From the NCBI GenBank assembly GCA_048939765.1, contig JBHLPF010000007.1:1-64000 (forward strand): a stretch of 64,000 nt of DNA, in the 5' to 3' direction. This document shows positions 53,982 through 61,400 of the stretch, piece after piece. The DNA comes from Promethearchaeota archaeon (GTDB lineage Archaea; Asgardarchaeota; Thorarchaeia; Thorarchaeales; Thorarchaeaceae). Made by a program: the position numbers and the translations under genes. Position 1 is the stretch's first letter. Each line of letters begins with the position of its first letter. Below the pieces are notes generated by a model. It made no database searches and had not been told where the DNA came from. It saw only the letters and a list, made by a program, of their open reading frames with translations.

Positions 53982-54419
53982 CTAGAGGTCCAATGTGAAT
54001 CTGAGCGTGGTACGATCCGCTCCCTGTTCAATACTCATATCTGCATATGTCATGGCCTTCACTTCTGTCCGTGTATCTTGACGCTCAAGATCGATATCCT
54101 CACCCCATATTCGACCATTTAGAGCAAAGCCCTCAGTATCTCTGGAAATCTTTTGAACCTGGAACTTGGAATAGAACTGAGAGTTGATGTCGATGAGTGC
54201 TATGAGATGACCAATCCATTCCACCAGAAGCTCCTCAATATCAATCCCGTGCACCGTTACATCAATGGATTCGACAGGCTGAACTGTCGATGTATCCAAT
54301 ATCACCTCTAATGCTCCAAGTGCCGCCTCCTCAAATGCCTCTTCCAGAGTTGGAGCCCAGCACTCTACTGTGATGTCAGCTGTGTGATCATGATACTTGA
54401 AACCGCGCTCGCCTGTCAT
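53982..54419 (-). CDS. Archease (RtcB tRNA-ligase cofactor)
   Basis: DHTAD, EVKAMTY, C-terminal LDL. Confidence 0.93.
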   Translation of the reverse strand: MTGERGFKYHDHTADITVECWAPTLEEAFEEAALGALEVILDTSTVQPVESIDVTVHGIDIEELLVEWIGHLIALIDINSQFYSKFQVQKISRDTEGFALNGRIWGEDIDLERQDTRTEVKAMTYADMSIEQGADRTTLRFTLDL

Positions 54420-54481: not shown

Positions 54482-54597
54482 GCCGAGGTAGCCAAGCCCG
54501 GATTACGGCGCTGGTCTTGAAAACCAGTTTCTTCGGAAGCATGAGTTCAAGCAATTCCACAAAATGTGGATTGGAACAAATCTCATCCTCGGCGCCA
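54482..54597 (+). tRNA. tRNA-Ser(TGA) with 29-nt non-canonical T-loop (58/59) intron at 54551-54579, CCA encoded
   Basis: GCCGAGG/CCTCGGC acceptor stem, CTGGT-CT-TGA-AA-ACCAG, long variable arm; removing the intron restores ATGAG-TTCAAAT-CTCAT; GTTC/GAAC central helix with AAG and AAA bulges. Confidence 0.92.
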
Positions 54598-54684
54598 TTT
54601 CTTCTATGTCTGTTTAGGTTAATCTCTATGAGGGCTTATTTCAAAATTCACAAAGTCTTTCCTTTATTTTAGATTGATATATGC

Positions 54685-55245
54685 TTAGCATTCAGATGTT
54701 TTGTGTAAAAAGAACTTCTTTTCAGCTTTATAGGGAGGATAAGAGAATAATTCGATATGGGCTATCTGTACTATGAAAGGATTCGTAATCTGTAAATCAA
54801 GGTAATCTTGGGAAATCTCCACTGCCTTAGCTATTTCCTGAGTTGGGAGGTCTAATAGAAGGGTCACATGTGGACTCCACATACTATCTGGTTTTCGATC
54901 CAAATCTACTCCTTGGTCTTCTAATGTTTCCAAGCAGAGTTTTCGTAATGATTGAAGATTGCTTGAATATTGTGGATTAAGATAGAAAACATGGCTGGCA
55001 GGAAACGTAGTCAGACCGGTAAATTCCAGTGAAAAGGAGTTAGAATTAGAAATTGCAGATTCCAATGCATCATAGTATTCTTGTTTTCTTAATTCTTCAT
55101 GTTCAAGTAATGTAATGTGGGGTGGCACTCGCACATATGTTTGACCATGCAAATCTGGAGAATCATTCAGGATTTTCTGTAATTCTTTCAACTTGTTAGT
55201 TGATGCTTCATCAAAACAAGCAATTATCCCAGTCCAAAAATCCAT
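54685..55245 (-). CDS. 2H phosphoesterase (2'-5' RNA ligase/ThpR-like)
   Basis: Two HxT motifs, PHITL and PHVTL; visibly AT-rich compared with neighbours. Confidence 0.8.
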   Translation of the reverse strand: MDFWTGIIACFDEASTNKLKELQKILNDSPDLHGQTYVRVPPHITLLEHEELRKQEYYDALESAISNSNSFSLEFTGLTTFPASHVFYLNPQYSSNLQSLRKLCLETLEDQGVDLDRKPDSMWSPHVTLLLDLPTQEIAKAVEISQDYLDLQITNPFIVQIAHIELFSYPPYKAEKKFFLHKTSEC

Positions 55246-55280
55246 GGTCCTCAACTTAGATAATCCAATTCAGTTCAAAG

Positions 55281-55304
55281 AACCTTAAGGGGTGCCTTAA
55301 GGTT
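55281..55304. repeat. Perfect inverted repeat AACCTTAAGG-GGTG-CCTTAAGGTT
   Basis: 10-bp arms, 4-nt spacer, about 30 nt before the first tRNA-end repeat. Confidence 0.8.
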
Positions 55305-55335
55305 TCCGAGAATGAAGGACCAGTAGTATAAGGCA

Positions 55336-55361
55336 TTCAAATCTCACCCTCGGCGCCATTT
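55336..55361 (+). repeat. Displaced copy of tRNA-Ser 3' end (att-like), intron-less form
   Basis: TTCAAATCTCACCCTCGGCGCCATTT vs spliced tRNA TTCAAATCTCATCCTCGGCGCCATTT (25/26). Confidence 0.88.
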
Positions 55362-55412
55362 AACTCTCGAAAGCTTGATTTTGCAGAGATGCAGAGAATA
55401 GTCGGTGTTTGG

Positions 55413-56402
55413 ATGGTTGAGTGTTTTGTCACAGGGGGCACCGGATTCATTGGGAGCCACATTGTCCGTCTACTGACTGAAAGAGGCGATCACGTTAATG
55501 TGTTAGTACGCAAGACGTCGAACATGGAATTGATTGAGAATCTACCGGTTTCTAAAGCTGTGGGAGATATCACGGATATTGATAGCATGGCGAGCGGAAT
55601 ATCGGATCACACAGAATGGTTCTTCCATAATGCGGCCCGGATGTCAGAATGGGGCGGGAAGGCTAGAAACTGGCCTGTCAATGTTGAAGGGACTCGCAAC
55701 GCCTTAGAGGTGGCCCGAAGAAAGGACGTTCCACAATTCATCTATACCTCATCGACCGCCCTCTATGGGTTTCCTGGAAAGCCGATGACAGAGGACTCTC
55801 CGAGAAGGCCATACGAGTCGTACCAGCAGTCAAAGCTTGCAGCAGAGGAATTGGTATGGAAGTATTCACAGGACTACGGAATCAGGGCTACGGCAGTTAG
55901 ACCACCAACGGTAGTGGGCCATGGCGATATGTACCTAGGTCCGATACTTATCGAGGCAGTGAGATCTGGAACATATGTGCACTTGGATGGTGGGAAGAAT
56001 CGTCAGAGCATTGTGCATGGCGAAGATGTTGCACGGTGCCTAATCTTGGCTGCAGAGAACTTTGGAAAAGCCCATGGAAATGCATACAATGTCACATCCT
56101 TCATTGTTGAGATGCGGGTCTTCATAGAGGCTCTGGCTGACGAACTTGGAGTACCAAAGGACTTCCGGAGTATGCCCTACAAAGCTGCACTTGCTGTCGG
56201 AAAGGTCACATCAGGTTTGTTTCGAGCCTTTCACCGTAAGGAAAGCCCCTTCCTGACAGCTTTTCGCGTGAAGTACATGGGCAGCGACTATGTAGTTGAT
56301 GACTCAAAGGTGCGCCAAGAGTTGGGGTATAAACCACGGTGGAACCTAGAAACCACAGTTAGAGACATGGTTGAGTGGGGAGGAGAATTCAAGCCTCGAT
56401 AG
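55413..56402 (+). CDS. NAD-dependent epimerase/dehydratase (3-beta-HSD-like extended SDR)
   Basis: VTGGTGFIG, HNAA, YTSS, YQQSK. Confidence 0.88.
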   Translation: MVECFVTGGTGFIGSHIVRLLTERGDHVNVLVRKTSNMELIENLPVSKAVGDITDIDSMASGISDHTEWFFHNAARMSEWGGKARNWPVNVEGTRNALEVARRKDVPQFIYTSSTALYGFPGKPMTEDSPRRPYESYQQSKLAAEELVWKYSQDYGIRATAVRPPTVVGHGDMYLGPILIEAVRSGTYVHLDGGKNRQSIVHGEDVARCLILAAENFGKAHGNAYNVTSFIVEMRVFIEALADELGVPKDFRSMPYKAALAVGKVTSGLFRAFHRKESPFLTAFRVKYMGSDYVVDDSKVRQELGYKPRWNLETTVRDMVEWGGEFKPR

Positions 56403-56456
56403 AAACCAAGGCGCTTTTGCAGAGTCTTGTGAGTGTTAGGCTATTGCTTTCCTAGA

Positions 56457-56480
56457 TTCCTCTCTCACCCTCGGTGCCAT
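56457..56480 (+). repeat. Second, more degenerate copy of tRNA-Ser 3' end (att-like)
   Basis: TTCctcTCTCACCCTCGGtGCCAT, same register as the first copy. Confidence 0.75.
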
Positions 56481-56598
56481 CTCTTCATAAAATAAGACTC
56501 CCAAGGTGCTATGTGTAGCTGAATACGACTCATTGCGTTGAACAAAGAGCTATATAATCAATTCATCCATTGGAAGAATATTGCGTGGTGGTATTGCT

Positions 56599-56952
56599 AT
56601 GAATAGGTTTCAGCGGACGAAGGCCGTACCTGAGCACATAGGATATGCCGTGGTACCAAAGCCGCTCCTGAAACGCTTCATCTTTTTGAGGTCGATGCGT
56701 TGTGCAGTTTGCGTTGCGCTAGCATTCTTGCTGCTTCTGCCTCTTACAATATTACCCGGACTAGTGGTTTTGGTGCTTCCCGCGGAGATTACCCTGGTTG
56801 GAAGAATTCAGGATGAAGCAGAACTTGTTCTTTGGGTGCGGAGTAATATGATCACTCAGGCAGGCACTTGGGAAGATGCTGAGTTAGAAAGCGAAATGGT
56901 TCGTCTAAGGACCCATGACAGACCTCGTGCTGTACAAGACTACTCACGGTAG
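56599..56952 (+). CDS. Hypothetical membrane-associated protein
   Basis: ATG after GGTGGT, one long hydrophobic stretch. Confidence 0.5.
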   Translation: MNRFQRTKAVPEHIGYAVVPKPLLKRFIFLRSMRCAVCVALAFLLLLPLTILPGLVVLVLPAEITLVGRIQDEAELVLWVRSNMITQAGTWEDAELESEMVRLRTHDRPRAVQDYSR

Positions 56953-57021
56953 ATAACACAGTAGTTTCCTATGGCTTGGGAATCTCGCCTAGTCTGAGTA
57001 AGGTAGCAGCAATCCTTGTCA

Positions 57022-57639
57022 TTAATTGGTCAAAAATACCATTATGGCCAAGACAAAGTAGTAGACCTGATAGGAACTGACCATAAACCTCTCGATCAGA
57101 CCGAAATAGCTACTTGTGGCTGTAAATGACGAGATAATGACAAGAATCAGTGAAACTATTGCCGTAATCAGCGAAAATGTCGCAAAAGCACTCCATTCGA
57201 ATACCGATTCTAATCGGAACCACATTGCCACCATTCCTGCAGTCGCCAATATTCCTGAGATTGCAATCAGGGTGAGGTGCAGCTTTCCACGGACAGTAAC
57301 AATCTCACCACCAGCATCAAGAGGGAAGAATAGAGCGACAAGCACTCCAAGGAGCCCACTGATTATGAATAAGATAGGCCCAATTATTGAGCCTACTCCA
57401 TTATTCACTCCCCAATGAAGACCAAGGTAGAAGACGAAAAGAAGGGTGCTAGATGTAATGATGAACTTGTCAAACAGCTTCTTGTTAGGAGCATCAACTG
57501 CCATGAGTGAGCTGACATCATCTCGAACGTGACTGTAATCAGGCTGGATAATTCCTCCAATGATCCACATTAGAGTATAGATGATTGGACTCAGCATTCC
57601 GCAGATTGCTAGAATCTGAAATAGATTCATGACTATCAT
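57022..57639 (-). CDS. DUF998-family membrane protein
   Basis: PDYSH....VS.L, FP.D, GKLH, GLIER. Confidence 0.8.
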   Translation of the reverse strand: MIVMNLFQILAICGMLSPIIYTLMWIIGGIIQPDYSHVRDDVSSLMAVDAPNKKLFDKFIITSSTLLFVFYLGLHWGVNNGVGSIIGPILFIISGLLGVLVALFFPLDAGGEIVTVRGKLHLTLIAISGILATAGMVAMWFRLESVFEWSAFATFSLITAIVSLILVIISSFTATSSYFGLIERFMVSSYQVYYFVLAIMVFLTN

Positions 57640-57654
57640 TCAACCCGTGCCACA

Positions 57655-58926
57655 TTAGGCGTTTAGATTCTCAATAACAGTGGCAACGCCCTGTCCGCCA
57701 CCAACACAGGCATTGGCAACTCCATATTTCGCGTTATTCTCTTTGAGAATTCTTGCCAGAGTGCCGGTCAACCTGATCATGGTTGAACCTAGAGGATGTC
57801 CAATCGCAGTGGAACCACCCATTACATTCACCTTCTCCTCCGGAATGTTCAGTTTATCCATGCAGTTGAGTGCAACAATGCAGAAAGCCTCATTGATTTC
57901 CCAGTAGTCAATGTCCTCGACGCTTAATCCTGCATGCTTGAGGGCCTTTTTGGTGGCAGGTACAGGTCCACGACCCATCACAGTTGGATCGACTCCAGCC
58001 CATCCCATGGAAACAATCCTTGCCATTGGCTCCGCACCTCGCTTTTCAGCCTCCTTTGCCTCCATTATGACCGCGGCAGTAGCACCTGCATTGAGAGGCG
58101 AGGCATTGCCCGGTGTAATCACTCCCTCTTCAGTCCCTTCTCGCTTGATATAGCCCTCTTTTCCACCATTCTTCTCAAGGAAGAAGGGGATTGATACTCT
58201 TGGGAGAGTTGAAACCTTCTCAAGTGTTGAGGGTCGTGCACTCAGATCCCTGTCCACCAACATGGGTTCGTCAACATTGCCAGGTGTATGTCCCTCAATA
58301 GGGATAATCTCCCCCTTGAACCATCCACTCTCCTGATTCTTGACTGTTAGATTGTGACTTCTCACACCGAATTTGTCCATGTCCTCCTTGGTAAAGGTGG
58401 GAACCTCTTCCTCGTACAGCTTCTGGGCTGTCTGTAACATGTTGAACACTGTCGCGGGGTCCAGGCCGGGTCGGTAGAACTCTGAAGCCTCGTCAGCAAA
58501 AGACAGGTTAGGTTCGACTCCCTTCCCCCTCACTCGGGTCATATGCTCAAATCCCGTTGATAGCACGGTTTTGCTGTACCCGGTCATAATCTCCATGATA
58601 CCAATATGCATTCCAGAGCCTGCAGACCCACACTGACGGTCGACAAAGATAGATGGAACATCATGTGGAAATCCTGACAGGAAGGCTGGAATCTTGCCCC
58701 CATAGGTCCAGTTCTCAAGGACTCCGGCGGCCACACCAATGGTGATCTCATCGATGTCCTTCTTCTCAATTCCTTTGTTCGCCAATGAACCATCAAAGAA
58801 TTTCATCAGCAACCGTGATAGGAGCTCATCTCCCCTAATCTCACCAAAGGCGTCAGTTTCTGGCTTATTGGGACGCGATCGTGAGAATGGGGTACGCACA
58901 TAATCGACCAGCCAAACTTCTTTCAT
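57655..58926 (-). CDS. Acetyl-CoA C-acyltransferase (thiolase)
   Basis: DYVRTPF, RQCGS, EINEAF, GHPLG, ACVGGGQG. Confidence 0.95.
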   Translation of the reverse strand: MKEVWLVDYVRTPFSRSRPNKPETDAFGEIRGDELLSRLLMKFFDGSLANKGIEKKDIDEITIGVAAGVLENWTYGGKIPAFLSGFPHDVPSIFVDRQCGSAGSGMHIGIMEIMTGYSKTVLSTGFEHMTRVRGKGVEPNLSFADEASEFYRPGLDPATVFNMLQTAQKLYEEEVPTFTKEDMDKFGVRSHNLTVKNQESGWFKGEIIPIEGHTPGNVDEPMLVDRDLSARPSTLEKVSTLPRVSIPFFLEKNGGKEGYIKREGTEEGVITPGNASPLNAGATAAVIMEAKEAEKRGAEPMARIVSMGWAGVDPTVMGRGPVPATKKALKHAGLSVEDIDYWEINEAFCIVALNCMDKLNIPEEKVNVMGGSTAIGHPLGSTMIRLTGTLARILKENNAKYGVANACVGGGQGVATVIENLNA

Positions 58927-59016
58927 GGCTTCCCCAGAAGGACTTCTGAGTTTTAACTCTTCTTTCGAATGGAGCATGAAAGAGGATTTATCTCACAGGA
59001 CGCCCTCCAACAGCTC

Positions 59017-59805
59017 ATGCCCAGGGTCCTGATACATGACATTGAAACCTACTATGAAATAGCCGGCGAGGGAGAAGCAATCGTGTTTGTTCACGGCGCA
59101 GCTGGTTCTCACGACAACTGGCGCCCTCAGGTTAAGCACCTGTCCGACCGCTTCGAAGTCGTGACATACGATATAAGGGGACACGGGAAGTCAAGTGGGT
59201 CTGACAGGAAATATAGCTGTGAGCTCTTCGCAGATGATCTGAATGGGCTGATAACCGCACTCGAGTTAGAAAGACCCGTTGTCTGTGGGCTCTCTCTTGG
59301 AGGGATGATAGCCCAGCAGTACGCTGTAAGGCATCAGTCCGGTCTTGCGGGACTTGTACTGGCGGACACTGCAGTGGCCTCAGCTCTGACCCTCTCAGAC
59401 AAGCTTCAGAAATGGATGTTCCCAGTGAGCCTGGTCAAATGGTATATTCGCAGAAAGACTCCAGAAGACTATGCGAGATGGTCATTCAAGTATTTCGACA
59501 TGAAGGATGATGTGAGAGAGTATCTGATTCAGGAACAACTTCGAATGGATCAGACAGAGTTTCTCAAACTGATGGATGCCATCTATGGGTTTAAGCTGCT
59601 TGACCTTGCCAGCATCAAAGTGCCAACGCTTGTGGTACTGGGTGAGAATGAACGAAAGGCAGTCTTTCCGCATGCAGACAAGATGATAGAGCTGATTGAG
59701 GGCTCAAGGAAGGTCGTTATTCCGGATGCTGGACATGCCTCCAATCTAGAGAATCCCACCGAGTTCAATCGAGTGCTTGACGAGTTCTTGGAACACGTGT
59801 TCTAA
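59017..59805 (+). CDS. Alpha/beta fold hydrolase
   Basis: FVHG, YDIRGHG, GLSLGG, AGH. Confidence 0.9.
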   Translation: MPRVLIHDIETYYEIAGEGEAIVFVHGAAGSHDNWRPQVKHLSDRFEVVTYDIRGHGKSSGSDRKYSCELFADDLNGLITALELERPVVCGLSLGGMIAQQYAVRHQSGLAGLVLADTAVASALTLSDKLQKWMFPVSLVKWYIRRKTPEDYARWSFKYFDMKDDVREYLIQEQLRMDQTEFLKLMDAIYGFKLLDLASIKVPTLVVLGENERKAVFPHADKMIELIEGSRKVVIPDAGHASNLENPTEFNRVLDEFLEHVF

Positions 59806-61400
59806 ATCTTCTTCTCGAGATAGGGTCCTGTATCGTTGAAATCAAGGGCGCGATAATATTCCTTGACTCCAATTCCGCTGTTCACAATCAGCCTGTTGAC
59901 TTGGAAATCCTCGAGTGTGATTCGCTCTGCCTCTTTGAGCATGCGGTCTCCAAGACCCAAATGCTGCCACGCATCCGGGTTCCTCTCACCAATCTCTACA
60001 ACAGGACCATACACTCTGAGCTCTCTAATAATGGCGCAGGGGCTATGATTAATCTCGGGGCGGTGAGCCTGGTCACTGGGCATGCGGAGTCTGAGGAATC
60101 CAAAGATGATATCTTGACTTTGCTTCTCGAAGGAAAGAAAGATTTCTAGGCCATCTGCAGCCTCATAGTCACGACGCACCAGCTCAATACCTTCAAAACT
60201 CACCTTTTGTCCGGTCCGCATCTGAAAGTGACCAATCTCTCTGTATCGAATCGTTGGGTTTCTCAGACCTTTCTCACTCATTCGATGATGCACCAGCTCT
60301 CGTAGGTTTCCTTTGCTGAAACCAGCCTCTATCTGATGGAGTGGGATGTCCCTCTGCATCCTCTGGATACGAACATACTCGGGCATTTTGCTGACTGCAT
60401 TAGAGACGAGTTCCACGACTTGATCATCAGAATAGGGACTGTATATTCCCTGTTCCCACCACTCGAACAGCTTTGTATTCTTCACCACAAGCGTAGGATA
60501 GATCTTCAGCATATCTGGTTGAAACCTAGAATCAGTGAATAATGCTTCAAAGTCTTCAAGGTCAGAGTCTGAAGTATTTCCAGGTAGACCAGGCATCATA
60601 TGATAGCACACTTTCAGTCCGCTATCCCTGAGCATCTTTGTCGCTTGGATGGTCTGTTCAAGCAGATGACCTCTCTGTACCCGTTCTAGGACCTCATCCG
60701 AGAGCGTCTGAACACCGATTTCCACACGGGTAGCACCCATTTCCAGCATGCTATCGATGCTTTCAGGAATCACCCAATCCGGTCGAGTTTCGAATGTGAG
60801 ACCTACGTTGCGGACCTTAGCTGTTTCGTTCGTCTTCTGTGACTCATTCAAACTCCCTCCGACTGTCCTATTCATTGCATCGAAACAGCCCTTGACAAAA
60901 GACTCCCTGTAGTCAGGCTCCTTCGAACACCAGTCGCCACCCATGACTATTAGTTCCACCTTTTGGACCGAATGACCGATCGTATCCAACTGATTTAGCC
61001 TGCTCTCTACCTGCCTGAATGAATCAAAGTCATTTTGCAGCCCTCTCATTGTGGCAGGTTCATGACCTGTATAGCTCTGGGGAACTCCTGCATCAGGCCC
61101 ACCAGGACAATATGCGCACGCACCATGAGGACACTTATGAGGTTCTGTCATGACAGCAACAACAGCGACTCCGGAAACTGTACGAACAGGTCGTTTCTGC
61201 ATCAGAGGCTGAAGTATTTCTAGCTCTTCAGGAATTGCCGCTTGCAACACGTCTGCGTTTGATGGGACTCGGGACGCCTTATGCAGTCCACAGATCCTGC
61301 TCTTGATTTGATTTATCTCACGCCGATCAAGAGCCGTTTCTGAGCTAAGAAGGGATTCGATAATCTCTCTATACAGTGCATAGTAATCTGGGAGAGGCAT
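59802..61400 (-). CDS. elp3: Elp3 tRNA U34 carboxymethyltransferase (radical SAM + KAT)
   Basis: CPHGACAYCPGG, QSYTG.EPA, ETRPDW, RMQRDIP, REL.VYG. Confidence 0.95.
   Translation of the reverse strand: MPLPDYYALYREIIESLLSSETALDRREINQIKSRICGLHKASRVPSNADVLQAAIPEELEILQPLMQKRPVRTVSGVAVVAVMTEPHKCPHGACAYCPGGPDAGVPQSYTGHEPATMRGLQNDFDSFRQVESRLNQLDTIGHSVQKVELIVMGGDWCSKEPDYRESFVKGCFDAMNRTVGGSLNESQKTNETAKVRNVGLTFETRPDWVIPESIDSMLEMGATRVEIGVQTLSDEVLERVQRGHLLEQTIQATKMLRDSGLKVCYHMMPGLPGNTSDSDLEDFEALFTDSRFQPDMLKIYPTLVVKNTKLFEWWEQGIYSPYSDDQVVELVSNAVSKMPEYVRIQRMQRDIPLHQIEAGFSKGNLRELVHHRMSEKGLRNPTIRYREIGHFQMRTGQKVSFEGIELVRRDYEAADGLEIFLSFEKQSQDIIFGFLRLRMPSDQAHRPEINHSPCAIIRELRVYGPVVEIGERNPDAWQHLGLGDRMLKEAERITLEDFQVNRLIVNSGIGVKEYYRALDFNDTGPYLEKKI

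Follow-up and report, generated by a model that had tools for sequence, protein, structure and literature searches.

Layout of the tRNA-Ser(UGA)-Elp3 interval

Within the window, i.e., the whole stretch of 64,000 nucleotides that was analysed, a tRNA-Ser(UGA) gene with an encoded CCA is separated from the gene of an Elp3-type radical SAM protein by 5.2 kb of DNA, which is divided by copies of the tRNA 3' end (Table 1). On the other side of the tRNA gene lies an archease gene, and this pairing is kept in all relatives examined. The inserted units in the window are single genes of 0.7-1.1 kb, located on both strands and provided with their own upstream regions; inserted DNA extends as far as the Elp3 gene at 59802. 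The elements listed by the first-pass annotation of this DNA (tRNA-Ser, 2H gene, first repeat, SDR gene, second repeat) are all found where it had placed them.

Table 1. Features of the tRNA-Ser(UGA)-Elp3 interval, in window coordinates
Feature	Position	Strand	Remarks
Archease gene	53982..54419	-	Conserved left flank of the tRNA; PF01951 at 6e-38
tRNA-Ser(UGA) gene	54482..54597	+	Array anchor; exon 1 = 54482-54549, exon 2 = 54579-54597
T-loop intron	54550..54578	+	29 nt, position 57/58; based on sequence and fold
Unit 1	54598..55335	-	Newest; contains 2H/LigT-type phosphoesterase gene 54685-55254
rep1	55336..55358	+	Displaced older tRNA 3' end, T54 to CCA, C65
Unit 2	55364..56456	+	SDR/epimerase gene 55389-56402 with own promoter region and 3' tail
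rep2	56457..56479	+	Hybrid end; left part from N1 tail, right part from tRNA end
Unit 3	56480..56965	+	ORF123, 56581-56952; matches no known family
rep3	56966..56992 (about)	+	Decayed third tRNA-end repeat, after ORF123
Older inserted block	57022..59805	both	No recognisable repeats; DUF998, thiolase, alpha/beta hydrolase
DUF998 gene	57022-57639	-	In the older inserted block
Thiolase gene	57655-58977	-	In the older inserted block
Alpha/beta hydrolase gene	58969-59805	+	In the older inserted block
Elp3-type radical SAM gene	59802..61400	-	Ancestral right neighbour of the tRNA

The first-pass annotation was right about the presence of a tRNA-Ser(TGA), and it had made no mention of the intron that interrupts the T-loop after TTCA. 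Because of this interruption the gene is missed by ARAGORN, with and without intron mode, and is not called by Rfam, which scores only the 5' part, at 21 bits. With the intron removed in silico, ARAGORN calls an 87-nt tRNA-Ser(tga) that differs from the intron-less gene of the related genome G002 by one D-loop base; the predicted splice product is thus a normal tRNA-Ser. The gene was resolved through comparison with intron-less orthologues, and inspection by eye finds a bulge-helix-bulge-like setting composed of a central helix of 3-4 bp (UUC/GAA), bulges AAG and AAA(U), and an inner hairpin. A further ARAGORN call, on contig C50, of a tRNA-Ser(tga) containing an intron of 985 nt is spurious, being located inside a coding region.

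The match of rep1 to the spliced tRNA end extends over 22/23 positions (25/26 if the trailer is counted) and that of rep2 over 18/23; shuffles of the window yielded no match as good as either. Sequence comparison confirms the earlier observation that both repeats begin at T54 and carry C65, as opposed to T65 of the resident gene. The prefix GGCA, which precedes rep1, is common to three repeats, and rep3 keeps a piece resembling the variable arm of the G015 tRNA followed by a GGC(A)TT junction. An intact tRNA is restored on one side of the inserts and a direct repeat of its 3' part stands on the far side, the decay of rep2 and rep3 being a sign of their age. Split or trans-spliced tRNA halves were rejected as a source of the repeats, which have no leader and no bulge-helix-bulge partner and decay with distance.

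The 2H gene of unit 1 matches PF13563 at 4e-17 and its product, which keeps both HxT motifs, would on this ground be a catalytically intact phosphoesterase. The unit has a GC content of 36% (48% for the window), and this AT-rich segment is foreign DNA that also supplied the pyrimidine-rich trailer of the resident tRNA. The gene was found in only 4/86 genomes of the family, and in G098 its place within the array is an internal one. Scanning metagenomes for the junction of tRNA end and 2H gene gave no match; a protein-based scan returned one AT-rich contig, in which 2H has a non-tRNA context. PADLOC matched none of the unit genes to a defence family.

Unit 2 has a different origin. Its SDR gene matches PF01370 at 1e-39, and homology to G004:C1:577848-578963 covers exactly window positions 55364-56479. 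This chromosomal locus, N1, is syntenic in G007 and G011 and ends in a 17-nt look-alike of the tRNA end; dS between the SDR gene and N1 is 0.84, with saturated flanks, while the unit is exactly absent from G002. The two parts of rep2 join at TCTCAC, which is common to the N1 tail and the tRNA end, and in G005 the rep2 copy leads into the sequence that lies behind the tRNA in G015 and G009. An ordinary 3' UTR was rejected as the nature of this tail repeat for the same reasons: its right part derives from the tRNA, and that post-tRNA flank comes next. The SDR unit was copied from N1 at the look-alike. Transfer of the gene from the array to N1 is less likely, since G007 and G011 have N1 in synteny, at 70% identity, and lack the tail there. 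A resident chromosomal gene can thus be watched turning into a unit by way of a chance resemblance to a tRNA end.

Variation and exchange of units among Thorarchaeota

The comparison covered 68 related Thorarchaeota loci of this tRNA. In 24 of them, distributed over 12 genera, the tRNA and Elp3 genes are adjacent, which is the ancestral layout. The remaining loci contain one-gene units between tRNA ends, and the number, content, and order of these units vary, in line with the variable cassettes that the first-pass annotation had expected in relatives. For example, G002, G005, G009, and G015 have ORF123; G004, G007, and G011 lack it. The DUF998, thiolase, and hydrolase genes lie between the tRNA and Elp3 in some genera only, in differing orders; NTR, thiolase, and DUF998 occur in three different orders among genomes, and order conflicts are seen in genus g5. 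Sequences following the repeats equal those following the tRNA in genomes that lack the respective unit, which substantiates the earlier proposal of serial integration with the newest unit nearest the tRNA. Other mini-cassettes delimited by tRNA ends, also anticipated in that note, form arrays at tRNA-Gly and tRNA-Asp of the same genome. The two observations that it had named as contrary to its proposal, repeat-free relatives with the same genes in the same order and relatives with full-size integrase-bearing islands, were not made; no relative has an integrase-bearing island at this tRNA. A literature search found no paper describing such Thorarchaeota tRNA-end arrays.

Synonymous divergence indicates that units are younger at their present sites than their surroundings. 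The dS of 2H is 0.45 between the window and the copy of genus g5, with flanks from 1.3 to saturated, and 0.09 between the window and G002, with flanks at 0.24-0.38; analogously, DUF4760 has a dS of 0.47 between genera, with flanks again from 1.3 to saturated. This disparity between units and flanks shows that species and genera have exchanged the 2H, DUF4760, and SDR units. The units thus make up a horizontally exchanged pool, with some members foreign (2H) and some copied from the chromosome (SDR).

Taken together, the junctions establish that the 3' part of the tRNA gene has received DNA more than once. Each time, a new tRNA 3' portion came in with its trailer and the old end, starting at about T54, was displaced downstream; the outcome is a row of one-gene units between decaying tRNA ends. 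The repeats could, in principle, be scars of a few ancient events, left with no dedicated machinery today, and the variation could come from ordinary homologous recombination with imported DNA, the conserved archease-tRNA and Elp3/thiolase flanks serving as arms, together with deletions between repeats. Within the window's genus, unit orders fit a single master order with differential loss; G094 seems to have gained a whole G018-type element, odd old end included, by flank recombination; and the decay of rep2 and rep3 agrees with old events. The order conflicts of genus g5, however, do not fit this explanation, nor does the youth of units relative to their flanks. Moreover, the breakpoint tract at positions 54-58 recurs in dozens of independent junctions, at other tRNAs as well, and a nuclease gene family, described below, is strongly enriched exactly at tRNA-end sites. 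We consider this explanation distinctly improbable.

Candidate engines and the T-loop intron

The first-pass annotation had proposed a tyrosine integrase as the engine, acting by a conservative crossover within the T-loop. An explanation of this kind regards the units as eroded or cis-mobilisable remnants served in trans by a tyrosine recombinase (SSV/pNOB8-type), or another site-specific one, of a virus or plasmid. Its classic signature is a set of direct repeats derived from a tRNA 3' end, the most recent unit lying next to the gene, and partial tRNAs with older elements pushed inward are reported in the tycheposon paper. Tyrosine recombinases were found in 11/31 family genomes, the GGCA prefix shared by three repeats could be a P-arm feature, and the use of secondary sites would agree with the pseudo-att site found where the SDR gene originated. 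However, neither the tyrosine recombinase family PF00589 (at E<=0.01) nor the serine recombinase family PF00239 has a match in this genome, a MAG that is 88.5% complete and from which integrase-bearing viruses or plasmids would be missing because they are not binned. No integrase was found at this tRNA in any of the 68 loci, the array ORFs of relatives included, and 0/10 integrase loci of the family lie near a tRNA end. The T-loop intron, furthermore, would break up the T-loop overlap region.

Structural evidence on the same question comes from G058, which shows two successive HNH-type insertions. The 3' half of its tRNA departs from that of other members of its genus, beginning at the variable arm; the difference takes in the T-stem, where two pairs are changed on both strands, and reaches far leftward of the duplicated tract. 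Duplication is confined to about positions 55-76, so that the replaced segment is larger than the duplicated one. Break repair accounts for this better than an integrase crossover does, and it speaks against the conservative T-loop exchange proposed earlier. For the tRNA of the window itself a G49-U65 hybrid would be viable, and the G49/A49 difference could be a later compensatory change. We regard a recombinase acting in trans as unlikely, though not negligible.

A true integron, with IntI, attI, and attC-bounded promoterless cassettes, has the look of a single-gene array to recommend it and nothing else. No IntI-type recombinase is encoded next to the array, in accordance with the lack of PF00589 matches in the genome; attC sites bounding promoterless co-oriented cassettes are absent, the repeats being tRNA 3' ends rather than attC hairpins; and the units, each having an upstream region of its own, occupy both strands. 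With its defining features missing, integron identity is already refuted and keeps hardly any probability. The term "integron-like", used in the first-pass annotation, holds as a functional analogy and fails as regards IntI, attC, and a common promoter.

Another candidate engine is encoded at the tRNA itself. In seven genomes belonging to three genera, the next gene behind this tRNA, in the same orientation, encodes an HNH-type protein that matches PHROG HNH profiles at 1e-12 to 1e-17. These profiles, together with look-alikes, suggest a 2xHTH-2xHNH endonuclease. The Pfam HNH match is below threshold (E 0.036), and a PDB profile search found HTH parts or proteins only; the AlphaFold2 model (mean pLDDT 55) is confident over the HTH modules only and poor over the nuclease halves. 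A tRNA 3' end is present in 14/20 loci of this family, as opposed to 0/10 integrase loci and a chance expectation of about 0.05 tRNA-end matches per locus. An empty site of the G018 element is seen in G078 and G049, and a G018-type element that is 92% identical resides in a genome of another genus, where the 5' part of the tRNA is native.

We consider there to be an even chance that the tRNA-Elp3 span is an accretion array driven by a homing nuclease. According to this model, tRNA-Ser genes that lack the intron would be cleaved within or beside the T-loop by a predicted homing endonuclease of the 2xHTH-2xHNH family. The break would be mended from an allele that carries the element, and the new tRNA end would thereby be copied with the nuclease gene, cargo, or both, as far as the old tRNA end, which acts as the right homology arm. 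The nuclease gene would later be lost, so that cargo alone stays, as in the window, and the repeats would serve as homology in subsequent loss and reshuffling of units. Counted against the model are the array of the window, which contains no nuclease gene or remnant, and the HNH-bearing tRNA alleles, which are without a T-loop intron that could account for their immunity. The only HNH-type homologue of this genome is located at tRNA-Val on another contig.

The T-loop intron lies inside the 54-58 tract, where displaced tRNA ends start. It is missing from G002 and 13 other loci of the window's genus; overall, it is present at tRNA-Ser(UGA) in 26/68 loci, with only 1/14 in the window's genus. The window intron matches that of the g5 genome G096 at 24/29 positions, and the exons from the anticodon onward equal those of the g5 genome G100. 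The g5-like exons and intron agree with a g5 origin of 2H, and the intron appears to have come from this genus along with the 2H unit. The intron may make the resident tRNA gene a poor target, shielding it from a homing nuclease that cuts the T-loop and itself travelling with the replacement end; we offer this suggestion tentatively and consider it rather doubtful. If true, it would provide a natural, testable case of an old idea, according to which tRNA introns of archaea protect genes from mobile DNA, as well as a route for intron spread via gene conversion. If the HNH enzyme is the engine, the abundant odd-position tRNA introns of these archaea would also be tied to a concrete selective agent.

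Relation to known systems

An Asgard archaeon is seen here, at the resolution of single junctions, to gain and trade accessory genes without any integrase, with a tRNA gene as the landing pad and units that cross between genera. Features of this process recur, in other combinations, in several known systems. She et al. in 2001 reportedly described archaeal "gene capture" by SSV-type and pNOB8-type integrative elements. In these cases, as in ours, foreign genes are trapped and repeats of the 3' part of an archaeal tRNA gene flank that gene; unlike the array, they involve multi-gene elements in which an integrase or recombinase gene can be recognised, whether split or intact.

Tandem islands of the tycheposon type in Prochlorococcus occupy tRNA hot spots, have partial tRNA repeats between units, and carry cargo that varies by strain, with newcomers pushing older elements inward (bioRxiv 10.1101/2020.12.28.424599). 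All of these traits are found in the array; however, tycheposon-type elements encode tyrosine or serine recombinases and replication modules, whereas the array units are single genes of 0.7-1.1 kb, and no recombinase was found at the locus here or in 67 other loci. Integron arrays similarly consist of a row of mostly one-gene units at a recurring site, shared and reordered between genomes, but have IntI, attC, and a common promoter, none of which is present here, where unit orientation is mixed. A connection between mobile-element insertion and tRNA intron gain was drawn by Sugahara et al., and a tRNA disruption model concerns Caldiarchaeum (PMC3293823).

Free-standing homing endonucleases of T4-like phages include SegB, in a tRNA gene cluster, and MobE (PMC2988022, PMC13096335, PMC2790892); for HeimM2 of Heimdallarchaeum, Wu et al. 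suggested co-option of a homing endonuclease for site-specific insertion between the 16S and tRNA-Arg genes (PMC8813620). As is proposed for the present case, free-standing nuclease genes that neighbour conserved RNA genes are spread through break repair together with adjoining DNA, although arrays of displaced tRNA ends with cargo units are reported for none of these systems.

The homing model likens the array to the WHO homing elements at FBA1 of Torulaspora and Lachancea yeasts (Coughlan et al. 2020, PMC7282813). There, an endonuclease-linked element enters the 3' end of an essential gene and replaces this end each time, targets are allele-specific, and a downstream cluster of old ends and remnants of elements builds up. 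Here, too, the 3' end of the target was repeatedly replaced and old ends were stacked downstream (rep1 to rep3 of the window), and an endonuclease-type gene stands directly behind the target in seven relatives of three genera, though not in the window. In contrast to WHO, which is intein-like LAGLIDADG, the target is an archaeal tRNA gene and the candidate enzyme is HTH-HNH, and the array units carry unrelated cargo genes, mostly without a nuclease. If the HNH enzyme is the engine, the array would be the equivalent, in a prokaryote, of the WHO/HO system of yeasts and a gene-capture platform of a new kind.

The tRNA-Ser(UGA) gene and its displaced 3' ends

The window comes from a Thorarchaeota MAG with a size of 3.37 Mb and a completeness of 88.5%. 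The first-pass annotation described the region correctly: tRNA-Ser(UGA), a 2H phosphoesterase gene (2H), a displaced copy of the tRNA 3' end (rep1), an SDR/epimerase gene (SDR), and a second displaced copy (rep2) are all present. The 2H gene (36% GC) matches PF13563 and keeps both HxT motifs; SDR (49% GC) matches PF01370. rep1 agrees with the spliced tRNA end at 22 of 23 positions, or at 25 of 26, the figure first noted, when three trailer bases are counted; rep2 agrees at 18/23. Shuffled sequence gave no match of this quality to the tRNA end. Both copies do start at T54 and carry C65 in place of the T65 of the resident tRNA.

Features of the array in the window
Feature	Position	Strand	Remark
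tRNA-Ser(UGA)	54482-54597	+	encoded CCA at 54597
T-loop insert	54550-54578		29 nt
GGCA prefix of rep1	55332-55335
rep1	55336-55358
Homology to the chromosomal SDR locus N1 of G004	55364-56479
rep2	56457-56479
Prefix of the ORF123 tRNA-end copy	~56973-56976		GGC
Elp3 gene	59802-61400		5.2 kb from the tRNA

The T-loop of the tRNA gene is split after TTCA by an insert, which is why ARAGORN made no call on the intact gene and Rfam scored the 5' part alone, at 21 bits. The orthologue in G002, the closest relative, lacks the insert and otherwise differs by one D-loop base; after in-silico removal, ARAGORN returns an 87-nt tRNA-Ser(tga). The T-loop UUC can pair with GAA at the 3' end of the insert, with bulges AAG and AAA(U) and an inner hairpin, and from this bulge-helix-bulge-like setting the insert is read as a putative position-57/58 intron.

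The tRNA-Ser(UGA) genes of many relatives carry an insert of ~33 nt, for which the canonical 37/38 site is a possible position (e.g., loci L019 of G005, L028 of G016, and L024 of G020). It contains the anticodon-stem 3' strand repeated, a second, different variable arm, and a piece identical to the D-arm (GCCAAGCC), and looks like the scar of a partial 3'-half replacement, kept as an intron. At L021 (G009, contig C15), a second tRNA-Ser-like 5' part with two mismatches in 21 nt lies ~180 nt upstream of tRNA-Ser(UGA), possibly a further tRNA gene, possibly a fragment.

Serial insertion and exchange of units

Genes and tRNA-end copies were mapped at 68 tRNA-Ser(UGA) loci in 67 family genomes. 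The tRNA is directly followed by Elp3, on the opposite strand, at 24 of these loci, representing 12 genera. In the window Elp3 is 5.2 kb away, and everything in between (2H, SDR, ORF123, DUF998, thiolase, and alpha/beta hydrolase) is therefore inserted DNA.

Order of genes behind tRNA-Ser(UGA) in relatives (g5, another genus of the family, the unmarked genomes belonging to the window's genus; NTR, nitroreductase)
Genome	Genes after the tRNA
G002	2H, rep1, ORF123-like, DUF998
G004, G011	NTR, repeat, DUF998
G005	DUF4760, SDR, rep2, DUF6992, decayed repeat, ORF123, DUF998
G006, G012	NTR; contigs end within or just past the NTR gene
G007	DUF998
G009, G015	DUF6992, decayed repeat, ORF123-like, DUF998
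G010	thiolase
G020 (g5)	NTR, thiolase, M1 peptidase, DUF998
G081 (g5)	thiolase, NTR, DUF998
G100 (g5)	NTR, DUF998, thiolase

The successive integrations proposed in the first-pass annotation are borne out by flank identities, layouts in relatives, and dS; these show serial insertion at the tRNA and exchange of units. Unit number and content vary among relatives, and the layout of G002 is that of the window minus exactly the SDR unit. The flank past a distal repeat is the flank found behind the tRNA in genomes without that unit. Thus, the sequence past rep2 in G005 is that behind the tRNA in G015 and G009, and the sequence past the nitroreductase repeat is that behind the tRNA of G007. Such identities are the pattern expected when an insertion at the tRNA duplicates the tRNA end. 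Because gene orders within g5 conflict, loss from a single fixed order cannot account for everything.

The 2H genes of the window and of G020 differ by a dS of 0.45, compared with 1.3 (thiolase), 1.7 (DUF998), 2.6 (archease), and saturation (MTase) for the flanks. Similarly, DUF4760 of G005 and G020 gives 0.47 (flanks 2.3 to saturated), and 2H of the window and G002 gives 0.09 (flanks 0.24-0.38). These values show that the units move horizontally. Only 4 of the 86 family genomes have 2H, a pair from each of two genera; in G098 the gene lies between two repeats, behind a newer unit. A metagenome contig of 34% GC carries 2H at 84% nucleotide identity, with no tRNA end on the contig, and an AT-rich outside source would fit. 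The window tRNA exons from the anticodon onward are identical to those of G100, and its T-loop intron matches that of another g5 genome, G096, at 24/29 positions. rep1 preserves an older C65, which matches the G49 seen in G005 and G015; the resident gene now has A49-U65. The exon and intron identities agree with a g5 origin of 2H, a later compensatory change being the alternative.

The SDR unit appears to have been captured from the chromosome. Its homology to N1, a second, chromosomal SDR locus, in the complete genome G004 begins six bases past rep1 and ends with the last base of rep2. The N1 gene has the same neighbours in G007 and G011 (~70% identity), and G008 and G012 retain an 85-bp remnant, which makes N1 an old home of SDR. 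The last 16 bases of the N1 tail in G004, G008, and G012 partly overlap the end of the convergent neighbour and agree with the tRNA end at 13/16 positions. rep2 is a hybrid, following the N1 tail to the shared TCTCAC, then tRNA sequence, then the old flank downstream of the tRNA. SDR of the window and G004 differs by a dS of 0.84, with saturated flanks. Capture was guided by this chance look-alike of the tRNA end, and the product spread afterwards.

Several further features of these loci were recorded. The units 2H, DUF6992, and ORF123 share the prefix GGCA just before the T54 start of the tRNA-end copy, in the window and at L019, L020, and L021; the prefixed repeats thus have either their origin or an element end in common. 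The ORF123 copy retains a stretch resembling the variable arm of the G015 tRNA but lacks the T-stem 5' strand. The 34%-GC metagenome contig (L092; Ga0209536_100056335) has 2H ~700 bp from a DUF998 gene 59% identical to that of the window; both families thus occur in the window's array and on L092, and the pairing may reflect a functional link or a common source. A larger insert at tRNA-Ser(UGA) in G014 (L027; C80:52500-60000), with no recognisable repeats within 6 kb, encodes a GOLD/zinc-ribbon protein, a NosD-like beta-helix protein, a DUF3800 protein, and a multi-wHTH protein of 694 aa that faintly matches Replic_Relax.

Crossover, break repair, and a candidate nuclease

The window encodes no engine, in line with the annotation of the units as integrase-less. 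The proposed conservative crossover within the T-loop by a tyrosine integrase is not supported. PF00589 had no match and PF00239 nothing above threshold in the 88.5% complete MAG, so that the tyrosine recombinase sought elsewhere in this genome was not found. Of 31 family genomes, 11 do have tyrosine recombinases; none of ten tyrosine recombinase loci has a tRNA end, and none lies at tRNA-Ser(UGA) across the 68 loci. Since PF00589 is absent from the window's MAG and from 20 of the 31 family genomes, an Xer-type dimer resolvase seems missing or unrecognisable in many Thorarchaeota.

G058, of the genus g3 of the same family, bears directly on the mechanism. Its new tRNA has the T-stem GTGTG/CACAC and a different variable arm; its genus relatives and its own displaced end, kept only from ~position 55, have ATGAG/CTCAT. 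Two base pairs differ in both of their bases, on either side of the duplication boundary; a conservative T-loop crossover would have produced a stem with mismatches. The pattern would follow if a break near position 54 had been repaired with leftward co-conversion. The left end of an element of the type found in G018 lies past the old end in G058, so two nuclease elements entered one after the other. The corresponding comparison for the window, of C65 in rep1 with A49-U65 in the resident gene, carries less weight. Displaced ends at tRNA-Ser(UGA) start at positions 54-58 in dozens of junctions.

A gene for an HNH-type protein, a candidate homing endonuclease, is the first after tRNA-Ser(UGA), on the same strand, in seven relatives: G016 of the window's genus, G018, G058, and G071 of g3, and G094, G068 (pseudogene), and G082 (fragment, contig end) of g5. 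The protein has two HTH modules and two Cys/His putative nuclease modules. It matches several PHROG HNH-endonuclease profiles (1e-12 to 1e-17); Pfam HNH is sub-threshold, its look-alikes in the Atlas are phage and archaeal HTH-HNH proteins, and the nuclease halves of the structure model were too poor for use. The family is patchy (23/61 genomes, several copies in some). Fourteen of its best 20 loci contain a tRNA gene or a tRNA 3' end, with at least seven tRNAs represented, compared with ~0.05 per locus by chance (P ~4e-14, the loci not all being independent). The site of the G018 element is empty in G078 and G049, where the tRNA is followed by the sequence found past the element's old tRNA end. 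The same element in G094 is 92% identical, and the 5' part of the G094 tRNA is typical of its own genus. We consider a homing nuclease the best-supported engine, with about an even chance of being correct.

The single HNH-type copy of the window's genome is a 977-aa form, with many HTH repeats and an HNH-type C-terminus, 18 nt past tRNA-Val(GAC) on contig C53 (L086; C53:1-8627). The next gene encodes a protein of 1014 aa that weakly matches HerA/DUF87, and a further tRNA 3' end closes the 8.6-kb contig; C53 may represent either a large nuclease element or an island of defence genes.

The T-loop intron occurs at 26 of 68 loci in eight genera and, within the window's genus, at the window's locus only (1/14). 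Its position falls within the breakpoint tract of displaced ends. The tRNAs beside the five intact HNH-type genes all lack it, and that beside the degenerate gene of G068 has it. These counts (five intact, one degenerate) are too small for a test. Immunity of intron-bearing genes to a T-loop-cutting nuclease is a speculative and rather doubtful reading.

Other arrays and published parallels

Other tRNA-end-delimited arrays, which the first-pass annotation proposed to look for, do occur in this genome. On contig C36 (L064; 1-5500), tRNA-Gly(GCC) is followed by three further copies of its own 3' end, which start at the T-stem (position 49) and have a ~10 nt trailer in common; the cargo comprises a small membrane ORF, a TPR gene, and a wHTH regulator with an ABC transporter. 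On contig C12 (L065; 1-1550), tRNA-Asp has one further end 1.39 kb downstream, whose T54 start is preceded by GCA.

Our literature search found no description of such tRNA-end arrays in Asgard archaea. The nearest published ideas are WHO elements (PMC7282813), tycheposon islands (bioRxiv 10.1101/2020.12.28.424599), HeimM2 (PMC8813620), and a model for Caldiarchaeum in which a mobile element disrupts a tRNA (PMC3293823).
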